A DNA stretch of 20,000 nt, from sequence record DRR723986_16857; one strand, given 5' to 3'. Positions 1-16,311 of the stretch are shown one piece after another. The notes below the pieces were generated by a model. It was given only the letters and a program-made list of their open reading frames with translations. It did not search any database and was not told the origin of the DNA. Each line of letters starts with the position of its first letter. Within the stretch, counting starts at the first letter, position 1. Made by a program: the position numbers and the translations under genes.

Positions 1-331
1 ACAGTTGCAAAATTTCCAAGCTACGTCCAGGTCAGCTCTGTCGATCACCGTTTGTGCCGTTGTGAAAAGGAGCGTGCTTTCTAGCTCGCAACTTGCATTT
101 GCCAGCCTTCCCCCCAAGGGCGGCACAAGGGGTGAACGCTAGCATTCGCGCCCGACGTACTAAGGGCATTGATAGAACCCTTCACACGGCAAAATGGCCA
201 TTCCTGCTTGCAAATGGCGAGGGTTCGTAAAACCCACAAAAACAAGGAGAACCAAGTTGACCCAATGCCTGCTCCACAGGGAAAATTTAGTGATCTGCAC
301 GTGTGAAACCGGGGATGCGGTTCAGGGTTAA

Positions 332-337
332 AAGGAG
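332..337 (+). promoter_or_regulatory. Shine-Dalgarno sequence of the CsrA-REC gene (also an ANGGA CsrA-type motif)
   Basis: AAGGAG 7 nt upstream of GTG 345. Confidence 0.7.
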
Positions 338-344
338 TGCTACG

Positions 345-1064
345 GTGCTTGTACTATCTCGAAAAGTCGGTGAAGCAATAGCTTTCCCTGCTCTGGATAT
401 CACGGTCAGAATTGCGCAAGTCAATGGAAAGTGCATTTCGCTAGGGATCGATGCGCCGAAAGATGTGCGGGTGCTGAGGCAAGAGCTTGTGCCGCACCTA
501 GAGAAAACCTGCAAGGCGACGCTGGGGAATGTGCCGCACGAGTTGCGAAACAAGCTGAACACGATTGGGCTGGCACTGCATGTTCTGCTGCAACAAATGG
601 AACGCCAATTAGGGGCCGACGAAGCGCTTGTCCAGAGCGCGCTGGATGCATTTCACTCAATCAATGCACTGTTGACCGAAAAGAGCACTCGCCCCAAGAA
701 GGTGCTCTTGGTTGAAGACAATCAAAATGAGTCTAGTCTCCTGGCCGCTCTGTTGCGTCAGGCCGGAATCGACGTCGCTACGATGCGCAGCGGGGAAGCC
801 GCGATAGACTATCTCCGCAGTGAGTCTCAGACGCCCAGCGTTGTTTTGTTAGACATGAAAATGCCAGGCATGGGCGGCGCGAAGACGTTGGAAATCATCC
901 GGAAGAACAAGCGGTTTCGAGATTTGCGGGTCTTCGGAGTTAGCGGAACGTCTGCAGAGGATGCTGGCGTCACCGTCGGGGCCCGTGGTGCGAATCGCTG
1001 GTTCATGAAGCCAGTTGCACCAGACAAGCTGCTTGAATCGATCAATCGAGACATTGCTGCCTAA
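345..1064 (+). CDS. CsrA-domain / DHp(HisKA-like) / receiver (REC) fusion protein, about 239 aa
   Basis: Part of ORF 303..1064. Start reassigned to GTG at 345 because AAGGAG (332-337) lies 7 nt upstream and the N-terminus then reads MLVLSRKVGEAI...LGIDAPKDVRVLRQEL, matching the CsrA pattern MLILTRR.GE.L...IGV.APK.V.VHREE. The middle has HELRNKLNTI (HisKA H-box-like). The C-terminus is a REC domain: VLLVED, LLDMKMPGMGG, VSG, FMKP. Confidence 0.9.
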   Translation: MLVLSRKVGEAIAFPALDITVRIAQVNGKCISLGIDAPKDVRVLRQELVPHLEKTCKATLGNVPHELRNKLNTIGLALHVLLQQMERQLGADEALVQSALDAFHSINALLTEKSTRPKKVLLVEDNQNESSLLAALLRQAGIDVATMRSGEAAIDYLRSESQTPSVVLLDMKMPGMGGAKTLEIIRKNKRFRDLRVFGVSGTSAEDAGVTVGARGANRWFMKPVAPDKLLESINRDIAA

Positions 1065-1097
1065 CGCGGCGCTCCAGGTAAAGCTGTTTGACTTGAA

Positions 1098-3251
1098 CTA
1101 GGGATGGTGTTGAGGTGTCAAGTGAGAAGGCAGCTCCGAGGCGCTGACGACAACAATCGGCTCTGAAGGGGCACGACTGCTGGTTGCTTCTTCGGCCAGC
1201 AGAAGCTCGACCGTAAAGACAGATCCCCGACCTTCGGCGCCAGCATCCACCCAAATCTTTCCATCGAAGCGTTCAATGATTCTCTTGCAAATGGCCAGGC
1301 CAATTCCGTTTCCGGTGTACTCGCCGCGGCCATGCAATCGTTTGAAGATTCCAAAGACGCGTTGGCGGTAGGCGGGGTCGATACCGATGCCGTTGTCAGC
1401 GAATTTGATTTGCAATCGATCGCCAGCAGCGTGCGACGATATCCGAATTTCGGGCTCGCCAGTGCAATACTTGATGGCGTTGGATATCAGGTTACTGAAC
1501 ACTTGCGTCAGTTGGAATTGATCAGCCATGACGAATGGCAGGTCGTCGAAGTGCACTTTAGCACCCGATGATTCAATCGTTAGTTCAAGATCATTGAGCG
1601 CATCGTCAAGCGAGGCTGCAGCGTTTGTGACGGTCGCCAGATTTCCATCTGATTCGACTCGCGAGAATGCAAGTAGGTCTTGGATGAGTGTTCGCATGCG
1701 TTGGGCGGCGTCGACGATGTGTTCCATAAACATCTGGCCATCTTCCGTAACCTGTCCACGCACCTCCTCACGCAGCAGGTTCGCAAATGAAAGTGTCTTG
1801 CGAAGTGGTTCTTGCAGGTCATGCGATGCGATGTACGCGAACTGGGCAAGTTCTTCATTGCTCCGCTCCAGTTCGGTGTTGGTTCTTCTAAGCTGTTGTT
1901 CCGCTTCGATACGTTCGGAGATATCGACGTGAACACCGATCATGTGAGTTGGCGAACCCTCAGACCATTTCGTGACGCGACCTCTGGAGAGAATCCAGCG
2001 GTAGCTGCCATCTTTGTGTCTCAGACGAAACGTAACGTCGTATACTGGCGTGTTGCCCGAGAAACATTCTTCGACGGCAGTCTGGGTTTCGGTGCGATCG
2101 TCGGGATGCAGTCGTGCTATGAACGTATCGTAGGAGTCGAAAGCCGTCACCTCACCGACTTGGGCGGACAACTCCTCGGAAACGTAGACTGTGTTTTCGA
2201 TCACGTCCCAGCTCCACAGGCCAATGTTCCCGCCGGTAAGTGCTAATTGCAATCGATCCTTAGTAAGCTGCAATTCGTCGCGGGATACTGTGGTTTCCGA
2301 TAGGTCTTGGAGCATGCGGTTGAACGAAAATGCCAACTGCTGAAATTCGACTGGTCCGTTTACTGTTAGTCGCTGCGAAAGGCCCTTCTGATCCTCGATG
2401 CGGCCAATCTGGGCAATCATGCTGGCAAGCGGGTTTGTGATCAGGCGTGAGCAGTAAAGGATTGTGCCGCCCAGGGCTGCGAAGCTGCAGAGGAACATGA
2501 AGACCAGGAACATGTCAGTGCTTCGAAGCGCCGCGAAGGCTGTGGCACGCAATTCTCCTTGCTGCAATACCAGCTCCACGGGCCCTTGCGTGCTCGAATC
2601 GGCGACCAGCCAATCGTGGGCGTTATTCTCGGATGGTCTGTCACTGTAGAGCAACACTCCGTCTTGATAAACCTGCAAGCGTTTTGATTGATCTGAATTG
2701 CGGAACCGATGAAGGAACTCATGCGTATCATATTTGGCCGCCAGTACACCCTCTGTGCTGGCATTGTTCGACGAACGAAACCGAATCGGGCAGGCGACCA
2801 GAATCGATTGACCGGTGACTTCTGCAACGGTGCGCCCCTCAGAGAGGGCATCCATATGTGGACCGATATCAATTGAAACGGTACCAGAGTTCGAAGCCAG
2901 GGGGCGGCCAGCGTAGTCGAACATCGCAATGCTACGAAACGCTGAATTTGGCAGCCGCAGTGTTCGGAAGAATGGAGGCAATTGCGTTCGACGTTGCTCG
3001 CGGCTAATCAACGCTTGGACAATCATATGGTTGTCTGCAAGTGCGCGAACGTAATCGACCAAGTCGTCGAGTTCACGTGCAACTTGGCCAGCAGTGAGCG
3101 CACTGGCCATGCGGATTCTGGTTTCAGCCTGATGCTCAAGGACTCGGGCAGCGAAGAATCGCGAGGCGAGTAACAGTACAAGCAACGCCAGCGCAGTCGC
3201 CGGAACTACTCGACGAAGTATTAGCCCTCCAACGGTTCGCCCTTTGGTCAT
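1098..3251 (-). CDS. Membrane sensor histidine kinase (TM - periplasmic Cache-like - TM - HAMP - PAS/PAC - HisKA - HATPase), with a bacteriophytochrome/COG4251-type transmitter core
   Basis: Two hydrophobic segments. HAMP: ITNPLASM...EFQQLAFSFNRML. PAS_3-like: IGLWSWD...LHPDDR...FRLRHKDGSYRWILSRG...GVHVDISER. H-box: FAYIASHDLQEPLR. N-box: QVFSNLISNAIKY. G1: DNGIGI. F: VFGIFKRL. G2: GNGIGLAIC. The Cache assignment is inference from size and position. Confidence 0.95.
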   Translation of the reverse strand: MTKGRTVGGLILRRVVPATALALLVLLLASRFFAARVLEHQAETRIRMASALTAGQVARELDDLVDYVRALADNHMIVQALISREQRRTQLPPFFRTLRLPNSAFRSIAMFDYAGRPLASNSGTVSIDIGPHMDALSEGRTVAEVTGQSILVACPIRFRSSNNASTEGVLAAKYDTHEFLHRFRNSDQSKRLQVYQDGVLLYSDRPSENNAHDWLVADSSTQGPVELVLQQGELRATAFAALRSTDMFLVFMFLCSFAALGGTILYCSRLITNPLASMIAQIGRIEDQKGLSQRLTVNGPVEFQQLAFSFNRMLQDLSETTVSRDELQLTKDRLQLALTGGNIGLWSWDVIENTVYVSEELSAQVGEVTAFDSYDTFIARLHPDDRTETQTAVEECFSGNTPVYDVTFRLRHKDGSYRWILSRGRVTKWSEGSPTHMIGVHVDISERIEAEQQLRRTNTELERSNEELAQFAYIASHDLQEPLRKTLSFANLLREEVRGQVTEDGQMFMEHIVDAAQRMRTLIQDLLAFSRVESDGNLATVTNAAASLDDALNDLELTIESSGAKVHFDDLPFVMADQFQLTQVFSNLISNAIKYCTGEPEIRISSHAAGDRLQIKFADNGIGIDPAYRQRVFGIFKRLHGRGEYTGNGIGLAICKRIIERFDGKIWVDAGAEGRGSVFTVELLLAEEATSSRAPSEPIVVVSASELPSHLTPQHHP

Positions 3252-4660
3252 TGCACCCGGCCCTCAGTGGCGTTGATTGGCAGTGGGCTCACTATTTGCT
3301 TGGAAGGTACTGCCATTCCGTCGGCTGTAAATCGCATCAGGCGGAAGTCGGTGACGTCTAGGGCATCGTGGTCCGCAGGCGAGAATGGCTGGTGATACTG
3401 CTTGACGACGCCCTCGTGGAATTGAAGCTGCTCCAATGCGAGCCGTACTTCCGGACGATTCAGCGAGTTGCAGTTGCGTACTGCTGCGGCGAGCAATTGC
3501 ACAAGATCGTAGGCGTGTGCTGTACCGAAGGGCGCAGAGATACGTTTAGTCTCTTGAGTGCCGTATTTGTCGCAGTACTGTTGGCCTAGCAGGATGGCTT
3601 CGGGGCGGTCATTTTCAAAGAAAGTAAACGTTTGTAGGAATCGGAGGTCAACTTTCTTAAGTGCATTCTGCGTCGATTCTTGGAATTCGCCGCCGAGGAT
3701 TCCCCAGTGCGAGAAGAACGGAATTCTGTCTTCGTCTGGCAGTGAGGCCATTTCTTTGACCGCGGCCGCCCCTTCGGGAGAGTTTGCGACCAAAATAACA
3801 GCTTCAGTCTCGGCTAGACGCAAGTGTTCAAGCTGGTCGGCAAACGAGCGATGGTTCCAGTCGAACCAGGCGGTTGCTGAAGGCGTTAGTCCGCGTTCCG
3901 CTAACGCGCTGTGGATTGCTTTTTCATTCGATTTTCCCCAACCGGTCTGTTCTAGCAGCATGCCGATTCGATCAAATCCACACTTCACAGCACTATCGAC
4001 CAAGAACTCGCCCGCATATTCATCTCTGACTGAGACGCGAAAGACAAAATTGGGAGAGTAGCCATTGGTGACGACTGGCGTTCCTGCTGCCCAGGGTCCT
4101 AGGTAGATAAGCTCGTGTTGATGAATGACGGGGAGTTCTTCGATGGCAACCGGGGTGTGCACTCCGCCGACAACCGCGAGCGTATTGGGCAGCTCAGCGA
4201 ACATCTCGATGTTATCGATCCCCCGTCGAGGATTCCCGTGGTGGTCACGAACGATGATTTCCACCGGCCGTCCCAGCAGCCCTCCGCGGCGATTGATATC
4301 TTCAACTGCTAATTCAACACCGCGCAAAATCGAACGACCGCCGGTCGCAGAATTGTGTGAAAAATCGGCGTCGACGCCTAAAATAACGCTGCCCGGATCT
4401 GGCCGCTGCGTTGCAGAAGATATGTTGGACTTCGATGGATTTTGCGGTGTGACTTTGGTAAGCCGTACTGCGTGCCGCTTTGGCACCGAAGCAGAAGTTT
4501 GCTCATGCGATCGGAGCTTGTCCTGAGCGAATCTCTGGCCACATCCAGATAGAAGGATCAAGGAGCAGGCAGCGAACAGAAGGCCTGAAAGCGGTGCCAC
4601 TTGCCCAATCAAGTAGCCCGGCACGGGCGTGGACTTGGATGGGAGGTTTGAAGCATTCAT
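3248..4660 (-). CDS. Type 1 periplasmic solute-binding protein (LivJ/Peripla_BP_6-like), probable lipoprotein
   Basis: Family motifs GVELAVEDINRRGGLLGRPVEIIVRD, AVVGGVHT, FVFRVS and AHAYDLVQLLAAAV. A hydrophobic stretch ends in the lipobox-like LSGC (Cys40 at 4541-4543). The stop overlaps the kinase start (ATGA). The exact start is uncertain. Confidence 0.88.
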   Translation of the reverse strand: MNASNLPSKSTPVPGYLIGQVAPLSGLLFAACSLILLSGCGQRFAQDKLRSHEQTSASVPKRHAVRLTKVTPQNPSKSNISSATQRPDPGSVILGVDADFSHNSATGGRSILRGVELAVEDINRRGGLLGRPVEIIVRDHHGNPRRGIDNIEMFAELPNTLAVVGGVHTPVAIEELPVIHQHELIYLGPWAAGTPVVTNGYSPNFVFRVSVRDEYAGEFLVDSAVKCGFDRIGMLLEQTGWGKSNEKAIHSALAERGLTPSATAWFDWNHRSFADQLEHLRLAETEAVILVANSPEGAAAVKEMASLPDEDRIPFFSHWGILGGEFQESTQNALKKVDLRFLQTFTFFENDRPEAILLGQQYCDKYGTQETKRISAPFGTAHAYDLVQLLAAAVRNCNSLNRPEVRLALEQLQFHEGVVKQYHQPFSPADHDALDVTDFRLMRFTADGMAVPSKQIVSPLPINATEGRVQ

Positions 4661-4957
4661 CGTGCAACCAGGCGACTACCGATGCGATCCAGCGATTCGC
4701 TTCCGGAGCACTGCGGCATACCGCTGACTAGGGGGTTGGTAATGTGGCGTGACAGCGAAGGTCGTAGATTTACTCGGAAGCATAGCCCGCCAAATGCCAG
4801 CGAATGCTCAAATTTCCTACCCCCTACGGAGGGATTGCTTCCACATGCGCCGATTTTGTCACCGCGACACAGCTCCAGAGACTGGACTCGTACGGAAAAT
4901 AGTAAAGCACGACGTGTTTGCGTCGGGTGAAGTGATTCGATAGGCGGAAGTGCTGCA

Positions 4958-5371
4958 ATGAGTGATCAGAAGATCTTGATAGTTGATGATGACAGCGCGG
5001 ACCGCTTCCTGCTTCGTCGTCTACTGACGCGAGCTGGAGTCTCGGCTGAATTCGAAGAATGCCTCGACGGTGAACTGGCTCTCGAGTACTTCAGAGCGAC
5101 GGCGGAAGATTCCCTACCAGATCTGGTGCTGCTGGACATCAATATGCCCAGAATGAACGGGATCGAGTTCCTGCAGCACTATGCAGAACTCCTGAAGGAG
5201 TCGCCGCAGCGGAGCGTACCGATCATTGCTATGCTGACTTCTGTATCGCGAAGCGACGAAGAGCAGTGTTTGTCTTACGACTTCGTGGTAGGTCAAGCTA
5301 CGAAACTGCACGAGAAGACAGATTTGCTGGTCGAACAAATCCGCCAAGTCATCGGCGACGAACTTAAGTAG
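4958..5371 (+). CDS. Single-domain response regulator (CheY/Rcp1-like)
   Basis: ILIVDDD, DGELALEY, LPDLVLLDINMPRMNGIEFL and MLTS are present, as is the conserved Lys (ATKL). There is no output domain. Confidence 0.93.
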   Translation: MSDQKILIVDDDSADRFLLRRLLTRAGVSAEFEECLDGELALEYFRATAEDSLPDLVLLDINMPRMNGIEFLQHYAELLKESPQRSVPIIAMLTSVSRSDEEQCLSYDFVVGQATKLHEKTDLLVEQIRQVIGDELK

Positions 5372-5392
5372 CAGTTGAGCCCGAAGGAGCTT

Positions 5393-7186
5393 TTACTGCG
5401 AATCTTTTGCGGCCGCTGGTGGTGTTTCGACTTCGATGTGCAGTTCGTGCAACTGTTTGGTCTCCACGTCGCCAGGCGCACCGGTCATTAGGTCCATCGC
5501 GCGTTGGGTTTTCGGGAATGCGATGCAGTCGCGGATGTTGTCCAGCCCGCCGAAGATCATGACGACACGATCAATTCCCAGGGCAATCCCGCCATGCGGA
5601 GGCGCGCCGTATCGTAGCGCATCAAGCAAGAAACCGAATCGATCTTCGGCCATCTCTGGTGTAATGCCTAGCAAATCAAAAACGGTTTGTTGGGTTTCAG
5701 GATCATGGATCCGAGTCGTCCCACCGCCGGCCTCATAGCCGTTGATCACCAAGTCGTAGGCCTGTGCCCTGCACTTCTCCGGATTCGACGTTAACAACTC
5801 AAGGTCTTGGGGACGCGGTGCAGTGAACGGATGGTGCATCGCAACCCATCGATCCTCTTCTTCGTCCTTTTCGAACATCGGGAACTCAACAACCCAGGAG
5901 AAGTGTAGCTCGTTGGGGTCATAAAGCTTAAGTTCTGCAGCAAGGCGACGCCGTAAGCCATTGAGTCCGCGGCATGTCACTAGCCAAGAATCGGCAAGCA
6001 AGAGTAACAAGTCGCCAGGCTTGGCATCGAACTTCTGCGCGAAGCCGTCTAGAACGGGTTGTTCTAGGTTCTTGCTGATTGGCGACCAGAGCGACCCATC
6101 CTCTTCGACGCGGAACCAAGCAAGTCCTTTGGCTCCGAAGTCATTCTTCATGTACTCGGTTAACTCATCGATGCGTCGACGTGAAAACTCTTCCGCCCGC
6201 CCGTCGACTTTAATGCCGCGGACAAAACCACCGCCGTCGACCGCTCCGCGGAATACGCGAAACTCCGTCTGCTTGGCAAGGTCGCTGCAGTCGACAATTT
6301 CCATGCCGTACCGGAGATCTGGGCAGTCGCTGCCAAACCGACGCATGGCTTCGTCATAAGTCATACGTGGCAAAGGCGTCTGTATGTCCAGGTCTCGCAG
6401 GTCCTTGGCCAGCTTCGTTACCAGACCATCAATCATGCTCATCACATCGTCGGCATCGACGAAGGACATCTCCATGTCCAACTGCGTGAACTCTGGCTGA
6501 CGATCGGCCCGCAGATCTTCGTCTCGGAAGCACCGGGCGACTTGGACATATCGGTCGAAGCCAGCGACCATCAAGATTTGTTTGTACAACTGCGGCGACT
6601 GCGGCAGAGCAAAGAATTGCCCCCAGTGGACGCGGCTGGGCACCAGGTAGTCGCGTGCACCTTCGGGTGTACTTCTGCCAAGGATGGGGGTTTCGACATC
6701 GACGAATTTATTGTCCGCAAAGTAGTCCCGCATCAACTTGATGATCTGACTACGTAGAACCATCGTGGATTGCATCGACTCGCGTCGTAGGTCGATGAAT
6801 CGATGCCGCAGTCGCAGGTCTTCCCCGGGGAGCTCTTCTTGGTTTGGGAAAAACGGCGGCGTCTTGCAACGGTTCAGCAGTTCGACGTTTGTGGCGCGAA
6901 TTTCTATCTCGCCGGTCGGCAGTTTCGAGTTGTCTTTTCCGACCAAGCGGAGGCTCACGACTCCTTCGATTTTTGCAACGTCTTCGCTGCGCAGACGCTT
7001 GGCGACCTCAAGGTTCTCTGCGCCACAGTCGGGATTTACCACGACTTGAGTCTTGCCGTAGCGGTCGCGCAGGTCCAGAAAAATCGTCCCTCCGTGGTCG
7101 CGGGATTTGTCCACCCAACCGCAAAGTGTCACAACTTCATCGACATTGGAGCTGCGGAGTTCACCGCAGGTGTGCGAGCGTAGCAA
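5393..7186 (-). CDS. aspS: Aspartate--tRNA(Asp/Asn) ligase, likely non-discriminating
   Basis: RSHTCGELR, RDHGG, STPEGARDYLVPSR, ALPQSPQLYKQ, motif 2 RCFRDEDLRADRQPEFTQLD, motif 3 GAPPHGGIALGIDR and IAFPKT. TTG start. Confidence 0.98.
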   Translation of the reverse strand: MLRSHTCGELRSSNVDEVVTLCGWVDKSRDHGGTIFLDLRDRYGKTQVVVNPDCGAENLEVAKRLRSEDVAKIEGVVSLRLVGKDNSKLPTGEIEIRATNVELLNRCKTPPFFPNQEELPGEDLRLRHRFIDLRRESMQSTMVLRSQIIKLMRDYFADNKFVDVETPILGRSTPEGARDYLVPSRVHWGQFFALPQSPQLYKQILMVAGFDRYVQVARCFRDEDLRADRQPEFTQLDMEMSFVDADDVMSMIDGLVTKLAKDLRDLDIQTPLPRMTYDEAMRRFGSDCPDLRYGMEIVDCSDLAKQTEFRVFRGAVDGGGFVRGIKVDGRAEEFSRRRIDELTEYMKNDFGAKGLAWFRVEEDGSLWSPISKNLEQPVLDGFAQKFDAKPGDLLLLLADSWLVTCRGLNGLRRRLAAELKLYDPNELHFSWVVEFPMFEKDEEEDRWVAMHHPFTAPRPQDLELLTSNPEKCRAQAYDLVINGYEAGGGTTRIHDPETQQTVFDLLGITPEMAEDRFGFLLDALRYGAPPHGGIALGIDRVVMIFGGLDNIRDCIAFPKTQRAMDLMTGAPGDVETKQLHELHIEVETPPAAAKDSQ

Positions 7187-7568: not shown

Positions 7569-8864
7569 CTATGAGGACTGCTTCCGCCGTTTAGCATTGA
7601 ATTCCGCTGCGGCAGGAGGAGCTGCACCGGATGCTGGGACGGGTTCTCCCAGTTGCTTCTTTATTTGAAGCTCGAGAGCGTCAATCTCTTTCATCAGTTC
7701 GGACTGCTCGCCCTCGGGGAGCCTGCTTGGCGAAGCTGGCGCAGTTCCAGGCCGAGCTGCCTGCGTGGCGTCGCCTTGTGCAGGAGGGCGACTTTGAGGG
7801 ATTAATTGCTGAGCACCTCCCGGAACCGGCTGGGGACGTACCGCAGCGGGAGTGGAGTGCATTTGCCTACCGGGTGCGGACGCTGAAGTCTGGACGCCAG
7901 CCCCAGTCGAGCCCGTTTGGTGTGCAACGGCTGGAACAACTCGATTCTGCAACAACGCGGCAAATCCGAATAACTCTTGTATAAGCGGCAGTTCTCGCTC
8001 GCTGATCGCTGGCGACCGAGCGGGGCCATGGGCGGTGACGGCGTAGCGAATCAACGGCGGATCTGAGGTGCCATCGGTTTGCAAGTACTTGCGGATCTGC
8101 TCCAGATTTCGCTCGGTGATCTGGGACGCTTTTTCGCCATAAGGGTGGATCAACTGCAAATCTGTCTTGGTGCGGTATCCGTGACAAGCCGCCTGGGAGC
8201 ACCGATTCTTGAGGATTGGCTGAATTGTCCGCGTGAATTCTCGCAAGACTGCTGGAGAGCTCGCTACCGAATCTGCCGTTGCCGAAGCTGGCTGGACGGC
8301 TTCAGAGTCAACTTCTTTCGGTGTTCTTTGGGCTAAGCGTGTTGGTTTAGGCGGTTCAGCGATGCCAAGGAATCTGCGAAAGCCTTCATCGTCGAGCATC
8401 CCTTCCTTCAGCTCGATTCCCAGTTGTCGCACGCTCGGATGCTTGGGGTGCAGGTCGGAGACGATGGTGTAGTGCTCGATGGCTTGTGAAATTAGGCCAT
8501 GCTGGATGCACCATCGCGACATCTGGAAGTGGTCTCCGGCTCCCCAGTGAATCACGCGGTTGGCTCGATAGTCGTAGACTTCCTCGATCGTTTCGCCTAT
8601 GAACAGCACTTGTTGCTTGGGCACCCACAGGCTCGAACGTTCGGCGAGACGCACTTCATAGCGGGCTCCGTCCTCGATGACCTGCCCTTTTTGAACGCGT
8701 TCACTGCCATTGGAGGCACGGACAAGGACAAAGGAGGTGCCCTCGCCCGACATGCCGTTGGCGCGTACCGCGGCTGAATCGCCCGTTGAAGCGGTTTGCG
8801 ATAGCGCAGGAGTGACTGCGGCGGTCCAGAGTAGTAACGCTTTGGCTATGTTTTTGCAGTTCAT
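7569..8864 (-). CDS. Secreted hypothetical protein with a CX4CH putative heme-binding motif and a Pro/Ala/Gln-rich tail
   Basis: 431-aa ORF. Signal-peptide-like N-terminus (MNCKNIAKALLLWTAAVTPALS-Q), a helical TPR-like stretch (HFQMSRWCIQHGLISQAIEHY) and FTRTIQPILKNRCSQAACHG. Confidence 0.8.
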   Translation of the reverse strand: MNCKNIAKALLLWTAAVTPALSQTASTGDSAAVRANGMSGEGTSFVLVRASNGSERVQKGQVIEDGARYEVRLAERSSLWVPKQQVLFIGETIEEVYDYRANRVIHWGAGDHFQMSRWCIQHGLISQAIEHYTIVSDLHPKHPSVRQLGIELKEGMLDDEGFRRFLGIAEPPKPTRLAQRTPKEVDSEAVQPASATADSVASSPAVLREFTRTIQPILKNRCSQAACHGYRTKTDLQLIHPYGEKASQITERNLEQIRKYLQTDGTSDPPLIRYAVTAHGPARSPAISERELPLIQELFGFAALLQNRVVPAVAHQTGSTGAGVQTSASAPGRQMHSTPAAVRPQPVPGGAQQLIPQSRPPAQGDATQAARPGTAPASPSRLPEGEQSELMKEIDALELQIKKQLGEPVPASGAAPPAAAEFNAKRRKQSS

Positions 8865-9540: not shown

Positions 9541-11307
9541 ATGGTCCCTACGCTGCTGAGTCTTCCGATTGGTCAAGCTGCACAAGTCAAGCAGTGGTGG
9601 GTTACCGCTTGGCTCACTCCGGTATGGTTCTTGGCCGTCGGCGTGGCGATGGGCCTTGTGATGTTGGCCGCGTTCACCCTGGTCTTCCGTCTGCTATCGT
9701 CTACTCCTCTGGAGAAGCTTTCTCGAGGACCGATGGGGCACGTCGTGGCGGCGATCCTGACGGCCGCAATAACTGGCGGCATTATCGCCTGCCTGCCCGA
9801 AGGTTTCTTCGGAAAGACAGATCTTCAAGAGCCGTTGCTACTCACGATTGCTCTGGCCCTATGCTGCGGGATTATTGGCTGGAGTATCGTCTTCTGCTCT
9901 GGCAAGCAGGCCGCCAACGACTCGATCCGAACGCTCACCGATGGTGCCGCCGGATATCTTGTCACTGCAGCGGGCATCGTGGTCGTCATCGGCGCGGTGA
10001 TCTGGGGCCTCAGCTCTGTTTCCAATCGAAAAATAGTCGAAGAGCCGTTAGCCGCCTTCAGCAGTATTCCAAAGCTGTTTACTACCGGCATTGAAGAGGT
10101 TGTCCTCAAGGTTCCTGCAGCGACCGGCGACGAAGCGAAATTTGAGAAGCAGGAACTCAACATTGATTTCGAGCTTTTGACGGAGCTGGAAATCACCAGT
10201 GATGTCGATGTGCTATTGGCTGACGCCGGTGAGAGCACTCAGCTTAATCGCGTGCCCGTTGATGTGCTTGCCGGCGAATCGATCGTTTGGCGAAACACCC
10301 AGCGTATCGAAGACTTGCCAATTCCGTACGAAGATGGCACGGACCTCTACATTCAGAACAAAGAAATCTACGAAGCGAACGTCACCGTCAGGACTCTAAC
10401 ACGCCCGCCGGTACCGCAGGCGACGTCGTTCTTGCTCACCGCGATCATGGTCACTTTGGTTGGTTTGAGCATTCTCCTGCAGCAAGCAGTAGCACCCCGA
10501 GTATCAGCGGTTGCTCATGCGACGCTCAAAAACGAGCTGGCTCAACCATTGTTCTTGGTTCTGATGTTGCTCGGTCTGGTCGCGATTTTGTTGTTCGAAT
10601 TCTTGTCGTTCAATACTTTTGGCGAAGATATCAAGCTGCTTAAGGATTGTGGAATCACAACAATCATGTTGCTGGCAGCCTTCCAGGGGATTTGGTCTGC
10701 GAGCAGTTCGATCAGCGAAGAGATCGAGGGAAAAACGGCACTGACCGTCTTGAGCAAGCCCATTCACCGCCGCAGCTTCATTATCGGTAAATTCATGGGC
10801 ATCTTTTGGGTGCTATGCCTGATGTTCGTGGTTCTCGGTCTGATCGAGATGTTCGCCGTGGCCTACAAGCCACTTTACGAAGCACGTGAGGCCTCTGAAG
10901 AAGCTCCCGTGTGGCAGCTTTGTCACCTGGAAATGTTCAGTACCGTCCCAGGGCTTCTCATGGCTTTGATGCAAGCTGTCGTGCTGACTGCCATTAGTGT
11001 AGCCCTAGCTACGCGTCTCCCGCAGTTGGCAAACCTTGCCGTATGCTTCGCCATCTACGTGATCGGCAACCTGACAACCTCGCTCGTTAGCAGTACCCAG
11101 GAAGGTTTCGAGATCGTTAAGTTCGTTGCACAATTGGTTGCGACGATCATCCCAATCCTCGAACACTTCTCGATGCAAGCAGCCATTGATGCGGGGAATT
11201 CGATTACGTTCTCGTTGCTGTCCGGTAGCCTGATCTACTGCTTGCTGTACGTCCTGCTGAGCATGTTCCTTGCTCTGTTGATGTTCGAGGATCGGGACCT
11301 AGCGTAG
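9541..11307 (+). CDS. ABC-2-type transporter permease-like membrane protein with an N-terminal extension
   Basis: The C-terminal half has the ABC-2 permease pattern (AVAHATLKNE...ISEEIEGKTALTVLSKPIHRRSFIIGKFMG...LMFEDRDL). The N-terminal half has about 4 TM segments and an acidic soluble domain of about 130 aa. Confidence 0.82.
   Translation: MVPTLLSLPIGQAAQVKQWWVTAWLTPVWFLAVGVAMGLVMLAAFTLVFRLLSSTPLEKLSRGPMGHVVAAILTAAITGGIIACLPEGFFGKTDLQEPLLLTIALALCCGIIGWSIVFCSGKQAANDSIRTLTDGAAGYLVTAAGIVVVIGAVIWGLSSVSNRKIVEEPLAAFSSIPKLFTTGIEEVVLKVPAATGDEAKFEKQELNIDFELLTELEITSDVDVLLADAGESTQLNRVPVDVLAGESIVWRNTQRIEDLPIPYEDGTDLYIQNKEIYEANVTVRTLTRPPVPQATSFLLTAIMVTLVGLSILLQQAVAPRVSAVAHATLKNELAQPLFLVLMLLGLVAILLFEFLSFNTFGEDIKLLKDCGITTIMLLAAFQGIWSASSSISEEIEGKTALTVLSKPIHRRSFIIGKFMGIFWVLCLMFVVLGLIEMFAVAYKPLYEAREASEEAPVWQLCHLEMFSTVPGLLMALMQAVVLTAISVALATRLPQLANLAVCFAIYVIGNLTTSLVSSTQEGFEIVKFVAQLVATIIPILEHFSMQAAIDAGNSITFSLLSGSLIYCLLYVLLSMFLALLMFEDRDLA

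Positions 11308-11785: not shown

Positions 11786-16311
<4,526 letters not shown>

Follow-up and report, generated by a model that had tools for sequence, protein, structure and literature searches.

A candidate phosphorelay ending in a CsrA-DHp-receiver fusion protein beside a binding-protein-coupled histidine kinase

The DNA considered here is a stretch of 20,000 nucleotides from sequence record DRR723986_16857 (the window), close to whose left end lies a gene for a protein in which a CsrA RNA-binding domain is followed by a helical hairpin of the dimerization and histidine phosphotransfer (DHp) type and by a receiver (REC) domain. Comparison with its relatives supports this CsrA-DHp-REC fusion as a real and conserved protein. 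A sensor histidine kinase, a solute-binding protein (SBP) and a stand-alone receiver are encoded beside it, and the arrangement suggests that an external chemical signal is passed directly, via the fusion, to the control of mRNA translation. The route that we tentatively favour runs from the kinase to the small receiver, from there to His65 and then Asp170 of the fusion, and ends in CsrA activity. In its fullest form the proposal is of a self-contained four-step relay, whose terminal response regulator (RR) would gate CsrA directly with a kinase-derived phosphotransfer hairpin of its own, and in which a LivJ-type binding protein would sense an external metabolite and set mRNA translation or stability with neither a transcription factor nor a decoy small RNA (sRNA); in that form it is doubtful.

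Domains and distribution of the fusion protein

From the perspective of its domains, the fusion resembles a response regulator with an RNA-binding output, whose effector is, judged by score and residues, probably a bona fide CsrA domain. The CsrA model (PF02599) was matched by all 47 aligned family members. Residue conservation was assessed on 86 members, to which 96 fusion-gene loci were reduced at 90% identity; in the CsrA domain it extends to L2 (86/86), L4 (82/86), R6 (86/86), R45 (85/86) and E47 (85/86). R45 is the counterpart of R44 in E. coli CsrA, in which L2, L4, R6 and R44 are critical for RNA binding. The receiver keeps D125, S/T200 and K222 (85/86 each) and D170, which is present in every member.

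The segment between these two domains had been called a DHp in the initial annotation, a call that is supported by structure prediction, by family-wide matches to the HisKA model and by profile alignment, with the qualification that the HisKA match is remote. In an AlphaFold2 (AF2) model computed from the family alignment (mean pLDDT 79.9), the CsrA strands are followed by a helix (residues 46-60), a hairpin (65-86/93-113) and the receiver, which starts at residue 119. The Pfam HisKA model (PF00512) matched the linker of 13 of the 47 members at E<=1 (best 1.7e-5), the window protein scoring 14.3 bits (E 0.043), below the curated threshold of 26.9. A profile of the 86 linkers, aligned by hhalign with the DHp domains of 15 neighbouring kinases, gave a probability of 94% (E 1.4e-7), with histidine placed on histidine. 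H65 is found in 82 of the 86 members, R68 (+3) and N69 (+4) in 77 each, and an acidic residue at +1 in only 40. Weak matches to SPOB_a occur in two of the 47 proteins (E 0.058). A Foldseek search with the whole AF2 model returned receiver structures only (E 1e-9), and is uninformative for the linker, for which a profile search of the PDB with that segment alone gave insignificant matches to TPR-like or designed helices (best E 0.017) and none to a kinase or a histidine-containing phosphotransfer (HPt) protein. Homodimer prediction for the full fusion, with a median score of 0.28 and a mark of 0.42, was counted neither for nor against.

No Pfam match to HATPase_c was found in the fusion, whose receiver begins about six residues past the second helix of the hairpin. 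Hpt (PF01627) is not among the four families matched by the window protein at E<=1, and is likewise absent from the 25 most-matched of the 40 families recorded across the 47 members. The fusion is neither a histidine kinase, since it has no ATPase domain, nor an HPt-family protein; the evidence supports its linker as a putative kinase-derived DHp homologue that has kept the phospho-His motif and lost the ATPase domain. The same resemblance of the linker profile to the H-box and first helix of neighbouring kinases might mean that the hairpin heterodimerizes with the DHp of the adjacent kinase, as RetS does with GacS, and modulates that kinase and carries no phosphate; this would leave the fully conserved active site of the receiver unexplained, and we regard it as very improbable.

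The fusion belongs to a large family. A word-indexed search with the window protein returned 1,027 proteins at E<=1e-3, the nearest 66% identical; the best 120 all combine CsrA and REC in 239-310 aa, and their named sources are Planctomycetota. An exhaustive profile search of 1.84 billion representatives of 50%-identity clusters gave 5,504 at E<=1e-30, the best 150 of which span essentially the whole protein. In the ESM Atlas there are five CsrA+REC clusters with at least 50 members, with Planctomycetota as the commonest phylum. In genome samples, the fusion was found in at least 12 of 401 genomes from the phylum of genome G001, at least 75 of 401 from its order and at least 23 of 251 from the family of G332, counts that are lower bounds as 6-11 candidates were scored per genome. 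The relatives in these three samples are at most 45% identical to the window fusion, and the neighbourhood comparisons described below leave out those of 66% identity. A scan of genome contigs with the window fusion alone gave two full-length relatives.

Several genomes carry two or three fusion paralogues about 1-13 kb apart (contigs G526:C18, G677:C3, G789:C3, G612:C1 and G718:C1, and also G532:C13, G597:C2, G406:C79 and G750:C1). Longer fused forms containing the CsrA+DHp part were absent from 543 candidates, which is weak evidence. Additionally, a cluster of 212-aa receiver proteins (rank 9 in the Atlas), commonest in Verrucomicrobiota, is annotated with HisKA in 32% of its members and contains no CsrA, which hints that a DHp-REC module lacking the ATPase also exists by itself.

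Kinases and single receivers beside fusion genes

Neighbourhoods were compared by using the window's kinase, SBP, receiver and aspartyl-tRNA synthetase (AspRS) as phmmer queries against the six-frame open reading frames (ORFs) of fusion-gene loci, a method that misses other kinase classes, such as the HisKA_3 kinase at locus L002, which was seen by Pfam only. Set A comprised 85 non-redundant loci besides the window, 16 of which were dropped for flanks that were too short. Set B, a replicate, comprised 40 regions from 40 genomes, drawn from the better-scoring matches in the order and family samples and containing 44 fusion genes (one row duplicates set A).

Conservation of the neighbourhood, which the initial annotation had left to be checked, holds for the kinase, whose adjacency is a family trait far above chance. 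In set A, a kinase lies within 1.2 kb of the fusion at 18 of the 32 loci where 2 kb or more is available on each side (16 of these kinases are hybrid) and at 15 of the 37 loci with one usable flank (all 15 hybrid); in set B this is the case for 30 of the 44 fusion genes (27 hybrid). Within the same loci of set A, the density of kinase ORFs is 0.237 per kb at less than 1.2 kb from the fusion and 0.021 per kb at more than 3 kb, an approximately 11-fold difference. All orientations of fusion and kinase occur, and the convergent one of the window is common, with 12 of 33 cases in set A and 11 of 30 in set B.

The 28 adjacent hybrid kinases that were scanned with Pfam all show the order sensor-HisKA-HATPase_c-Response_reg, and an Hpt domain was found in none of them. 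Their sensor modules include CheB-CheR-PAS_10, DUF4118, PAS arrays and MASE3. The commonest partner is a protein of 1,100-1,540 aa in which CheB methylesterase, CheR methyltransferase, PAS_10, HisKA and HATPase_c are usually followed by a receiver, that is, the chemotaxis-adaptation pair fused to a hybrid kinase (loci L101, L105, L107, L148, L155, L162, L183, L246 and L278).

The composition of these kinases bears on a simpler explanation, according to which kinase and fusion form a plain two-component pair: the kinase would phosphorylate Asp170 directly, the hairpin would serve as a dimerizer, a built-in phosphatase or both, and the small receiver would be a phosphate sink or a side branch. 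Most relatives of the fusion pair with hybrid kinases that lack an HPt and would be unable to reach a terminal receiver without a second histidine, although the kinase of the window is itself non-hybrid, so that a second histidine is not formally needed there. CsrA is an obligate dimer, which a DHp would stabilize; dimerization alone would not require a near-invariant histidine. A phosphatase role finds some agreement in the linker, in which Asn is retained at +4 and the acid at +1 is not: in HisKA proteins, phosphatase activity depends on the residue at +4 and kinase activity on the acid at +1, and the pattern would thus be a constraint of the phosphatase type and not of the kinase type. On balance, we consider direct phosphorylation of this kind unlikely.

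The 717-aa window kinase has hydrophobic segments at residues 9-39 and 246-268, which flank a loop of about 205 residues with a weak dCache_1 match, followed by HAMP, PAS_3, HisKA (with His477, codon 1821-1823) and HATPase_c; Pfam detected no receiver domain in it. Its best matches among the ORFs of the loci are non-hybrid kinases that adjoin a single receiver and a fusion gene, and this trio of a non-hybrid kinase, a window-like single receiver and a fusion recurs at four other loci (L105, L189, L246 and L278). At L278, three genes in a row on one strand encode an 801-aa PAS-HisKA-HATPase kinase, which matches that of the window at 5.5e-59, a 147-aa receiver, for which the match to the window's is 1.9e-14, and the fusion, and at L105 and L189 the fusion gene converges with a receiver-kinase pair. 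At L246 and L278, a CheB-CheR-PAS_10-HisKA-HATPase kinase devoid of a receiver adjoins a single receiver gene and then a fusion gene, an arrangement resembling the standard hybrid partner split in two. The window receiver has the catalytic residues D10/D11, D60 (codon 5135-5137), T94 and K116, and five single receivers beside fusions, 34-37% identical to it, have the catalytic residues in common.

At L246 and L278, one fusion copy stands by a hybrid kinase and the other by the receiver-less kinase with its single receiver. A distinct orthologous subfamily of trio-associated fusions was considered and rejected, as these fusions do not form one clade in a FastTree phylogeny of 130 fusion proteins, where the trio label changes five times for five rows. 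Other genes near fusions include, at L111 (G398:C41, 8929-13222), a KaiC-family ATPase, a PAS kinase, a single receiver and a NarL-type regulator, upstream of the fusion on the same strand, an arrangement through which clock-like signals from KaiC may reach the CsrA fusion. Two loci encode other RNA-binding proteins near the fusion, L154 (633-2429, plus strand) a protein with S1 repeats that weakly matches the CsrA model and L123 (3992-4516, plus strand) an RRM_1 protein; both may be coincidence.

Organization of the window locus

The features of the locus are collected in Table 1. The four genes described in the initial annotation were all recovered where it had placed them, by ORF listing and by Pfam and NCBIfam scans. 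The 33 nt that it gave between the fusion and kinase stops are read directly from the sequence, the receiver gene is indeed divergent from that of the SBP, and the absence of helix-turn-helix (HTH), cyclase and transporter domains that it noted is borne out for the four proteins. Such domains were not recognized in the other scanned ORFs of the window either, three of which have no Pfam match at all.

Table 1. Features of the fusion gene and its neighbours in the window (positions are those of the whole stretch)
Feature	Position	Strand	Basis or remark
Shine-Dalgarno-like AAGGAG	332..337	+	7 nt before the fusion GTG; read from sequence
CsrA-DHp-REC fusion gene	345..1064	+	239 aa, GTG start; ORF listing, Pfam/NCBIfam scans
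CsrA RNA-binding domain, residues 2-50	348..494	+	Pfam PF02599, 50.7 bits (cut-off 27), E 1.7e-13
HisKA-type DHp helical hairpin without ATPase domain, residues 60-113 (predicted)	522..683	+	AF2, hhalign, sub-cut-off Pfam HisKA
His65 codon, in H-box-like motif H-E-L-R-N	537..539	+	Conservation; aligns with kinase phospho-His
Receiver (REC) domain, residues 120-233	702..1043	+	Pfam PF00072, 72.9 bits, E 2.9e-20
Asp170 codon, predicted phospho-acceptor	852..854	+	Invariant in 86/86 members
Spacer between convergent fusion and kinase stops	1065..1097	.	33 nt
Sensor histidine kinase gene	1098..3251	-	717 aa
Peripla_BP_6 (LivJ-type) solute-binding lipoprotein gene	3248..4660	-	470 aa
Divergent intergenic region between SBP-kinase operon and receiver gene	4661..4957	.	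297 nt
Stand-alone receiver gene	4958..5371	+	137 aa, receiver-only

The SBP matches Peripla_BP_6 (E 2.1e-32) and has a lipobox ending at Cys40, and the last 4 nt of its gene (3248-3251) are also the first of the kinase gene. Among the 401 genomes of the order sample there is one clear orthologue of it (46% identity, E 5.9e-117), in G709. The next gene there, which overlaps it by 4 nt as in the window, encodes a 757-aa HAMP-PAS-HATPase kinase, alignable with the window kinase from residue 11 on. The transcription unit claimed for these two genes is in agreement with this, in that the only orthologue found has an adjacent kinase as well, and comparison supports the SBP-kinase pair as a conserved operon.

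G709 is also the nearest genome found, with an AspRS 81% identical to that of the window. None of its 60 candidates, all of them scored, is a full-length fusion, the matches being CsrA-like ORFs and receivers that stand alone, and at E<=1e-8 it has no counterpart of the small receiver. Around AspRS (locus L238, G709:C3), the two genomes are syntenic on one side only, where orthologues of the ORFs at 9541-11307 (588 aa, 67% identical) and 7569-8864 (431 aa, 33% identical) keep their order. Synteny stops exactly at the 3' end of AspRS (window 5372-5392), at which point the window has the receiver, SBP, kinase and fusion genes; this segment must therefore be arranged differently, or be absent, in G709.

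As a conserved four-gene island, the set described in the initial annotation is not upheld: at E<1e-3 in phmmer, SBP homologues were found in none of the 95 other fusion loci of set A (85 after dereplication at 90%) and none of the 40 of set B, and G709 has the SBP-kinase pair alone. Since the set is not conserved, the island is better described as modules conserved separately and brought together locally, three associations being supported by gene comparison: the fusion with a kinase, the SBP with a kinase, and a non-hybrid kinase plus single receiver with the fusion. The signalling circuit that had been proposed for it fares better in its parts (a real fusion, kinase adjacency, an SBP-kinase operon and a recurring trio) than as a set of four genes.

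It might accordingly be asked whether these neighbours are wired to one another. The SBP-kinase pair, possibly with no output other than the small receiver, could be self-contained and the fusion be served by another kinase, for example an upstream hybrid beyond the window. Such a kinase, encoded upstream and divergently at gaps of 115-434 nt, is found in the sister clade of the window fusion, and the left flank of the window, the side on which that clade has it, lies beyond the visible sequence; moreover, a kinase within 1.2 kb is missing at 14 of the 32 well-flanked loci, the SBP is seen at none of the other fusion loci, and in G709 the pair exists alone, synteny with the window breaking at AspRS. 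Against this stand the approximately 11-fold enrichment of kinases beside fusion genes, the mere 33 nt between the convergent stops of fusion and kinase, and the presence of the same types of kinase and receiver next to fusions at four other loci, once as a same-strand row. Coincidental proximity is in our judgement somewhat improbable, and the relay from kinase through small receiver to fusion is retained as the working interpretation.

The upstream side of the fusion gene is visible for 344 nt only. It includes a minus-strand ORF (1-126; 42 codons, GTG start at 126) that is open-ended and runs off the left edge, and with which a gene transcribed divergently might begin. An autoregulatory leader was considered for this region and dropped, the approximately five GGA motifs counted by eye being close to the expectation from base composition. 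A scan of positions 1-5500 for promoter-like and terminator-like sites gave counts at chance level, with no terminator-like site above chance in the 33-nt spacer, and an Rfam scan of the window gave zero matches, no CsrB-like RNA being recognized. The remaining ORFs of the window encode AspRS, an NAD-dependent DNA ligase, ATP synthase subunits and three large proteins of 431, 588 and 822 aa (7569-8864, minus strand; 9541-11307, plus strand; 13843-16311, minus strand) with no Pfam match at E<=1e-5.

The proposed phosphorelay and related systems

With its CsrA domain, ATPase-less DHp hairpin and canonical receiver, the fusion would be a phosphorylation-controlled CsrA. Across the family, His65 may supply the second histidine that a His-Asp-His-Asp relay from HPt-less hybrid kinases would otherwise lack, because it is near-invariant, because those partner kinases have no Hpt domain and because split variants exist; in addition, the receiver is attached at the position of the ATPase domain, beside the histidine, a geometric argument for the same role. 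The window would then represent a variant in which two separate proteins, an SBP-coupled kinase and a stand-alone receiver, take the place of the hybrid kinase. The phosphotransfer steps, and the regulation of RNA binding to which they would lead, are those that we infer. The kinase would first autophosphorylate on His477, under modulation by the SBP, and the phosphoryl group would be transferred to Asp60 of the small receiver, standing in for the receiver domain of a hybrid kinase. It would then pass to His65 in the hairpin of the fusion and finally to Asp170, where phosphorylation of the receiver would alter the binding of the dimeric CsrA module to GGA-type sites in mRNA. As judged from the sequences, the parts that such a relay requires, a first receiver, a second histidine and a terminal receiver, appear to be present and co-located.

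Several observations weigh against this relay. Each of five genomes has 4-6 Hpt matches, some in small, possibly stand-alone ORFs, so that a separate HPt could serve the hybrid kinases, although this census does not tell the competing models apart. The conserved histidine with its Asn at +4 and relaxed +1 acid fits a phosphatase role too. The H-box of the window kinase reads SHDLQEPL, as against SHELRNPL in the usual partner kinases, and the window receiver, at only 34-37% identity to the other single receivers, does not have their C-terminal motif. On the family tree the trio label is scattered, and the window fusion itself has a long branch and is weakly joined (support 87), as sister, to the clade with upstream divergent hybrid PAS kinases; the flank where that clade keeps its kinase is outside the visible 344 nt, in which the open-ended minus-strand ORF lies. 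Finally, G709 keeps the SBP-kinase pair with neither fusion nor small receiver, which indicates that the kinase can work without both.

Among known systems, the CsrA/RsmA/RsmE proteins (PF02599) share with residues 2-50 of the fusion a score above the model cut-off and the RNA-binding residues L2, L4, R6 and R45. Known CsrA proteins are free-standing dimers of 60-70 aa, controlled by decoy sRNAs (CsrB, RsmY/Z) or by protein antagonists (FliW, CesT), whereas the CsrA domain of the fusion is covalently joined to DHp and REC modules. In the Gac/Rsm and BarA-UvrY/Csr pathways, a two-component system also ultimately sets CsrA activity; there the link is indirect, as the response regulator switches on sRNA genes whose products titrate CsrA, while the fusion would provide a direct, covalent link that involves no binding to DNA. 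The response regulators of the ANTAR type (AmiR, EutV and PdtaR) likewise combine a receiver with an RNA-binding effector and have a post-transcriptional output, but the effector of the fusion is N-terminal and of the CsrA fold, and a DHp with a conserved histidine is placed between effector and receiver.

From the perspective of phosphotransfer, the closest likeness is to Spo0B of Bacillus and ChpT of Caulobacter, in which a kinase-derived four-helix-bundle element with a conserved histidine and no working ATPase shuttles phosphate between receivers, as the hairpin of the fusion would do. Spo0B and ChpT are separate proteins with a degenerate domain resembling the catalytic and ATP-binding (CA) domain; the hairpin of the fusion is instead joined to its presumed acceptor receiver and effector, and has no CA remnant. 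On the input side, the orphan binding protein of the window, which shares an operon with a membrane kinase bearing a large extracytoplasmic loop, resembles those of LuxP-LuxQ, TorT-TorS and ChvE-VirA, and Pfam recognized no ABC transporter genes near it among the scanned window ORFs. Unlike those binding proteins, it is of the LivJ/Peripla_BP_6 class and lipid-anchored, and its interaction with the kinase is a prediction.

The suggestion that this is an undescribed system stands in part. A 2006 census, as cited in PMC2222644, counts CsrA, next to ANTAR, among the RNA-binding output domains of response regulators, and a 2025 review names 'CsrA' among RNA-binding regulators, meaning E. coli CsrA (PMC12471899). 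No study of CsrA-DHp-REC fusions was found in full-text searches, which subscription journals largely fall outside. The family is a catalogued but, within that scope, unstudied class of response regulator, of which the window has a variant with a binding-protein-coupled kinase and a putative split relay.

CsrA/RsmA proteins are among the main post-transcriptional regulators of bacteria and, to our knowledge, their control is indirect in every studied case, through decoy RNAs or protein antagonists. If the proposed relay is true, the fusion would be the first example of direct two-component control of a CsrA-type regulator and would represent a new way to build HPt function into a regulator. 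The family provides a compact case, open to experimental test, of a kinase DHp that may have been reused as an in-built phosphotransfer (or phosphatase) element, and the variant of the window, as it has a defined extracytoplasmic input in its binding-protein-coupled kinase, would be convenient for reconstitution. If the relay reading is right, it would also follow that the Planctomycetota, a phylum with few studied regulators, route much of their two-component signalling into the control of translation and not of transcription.

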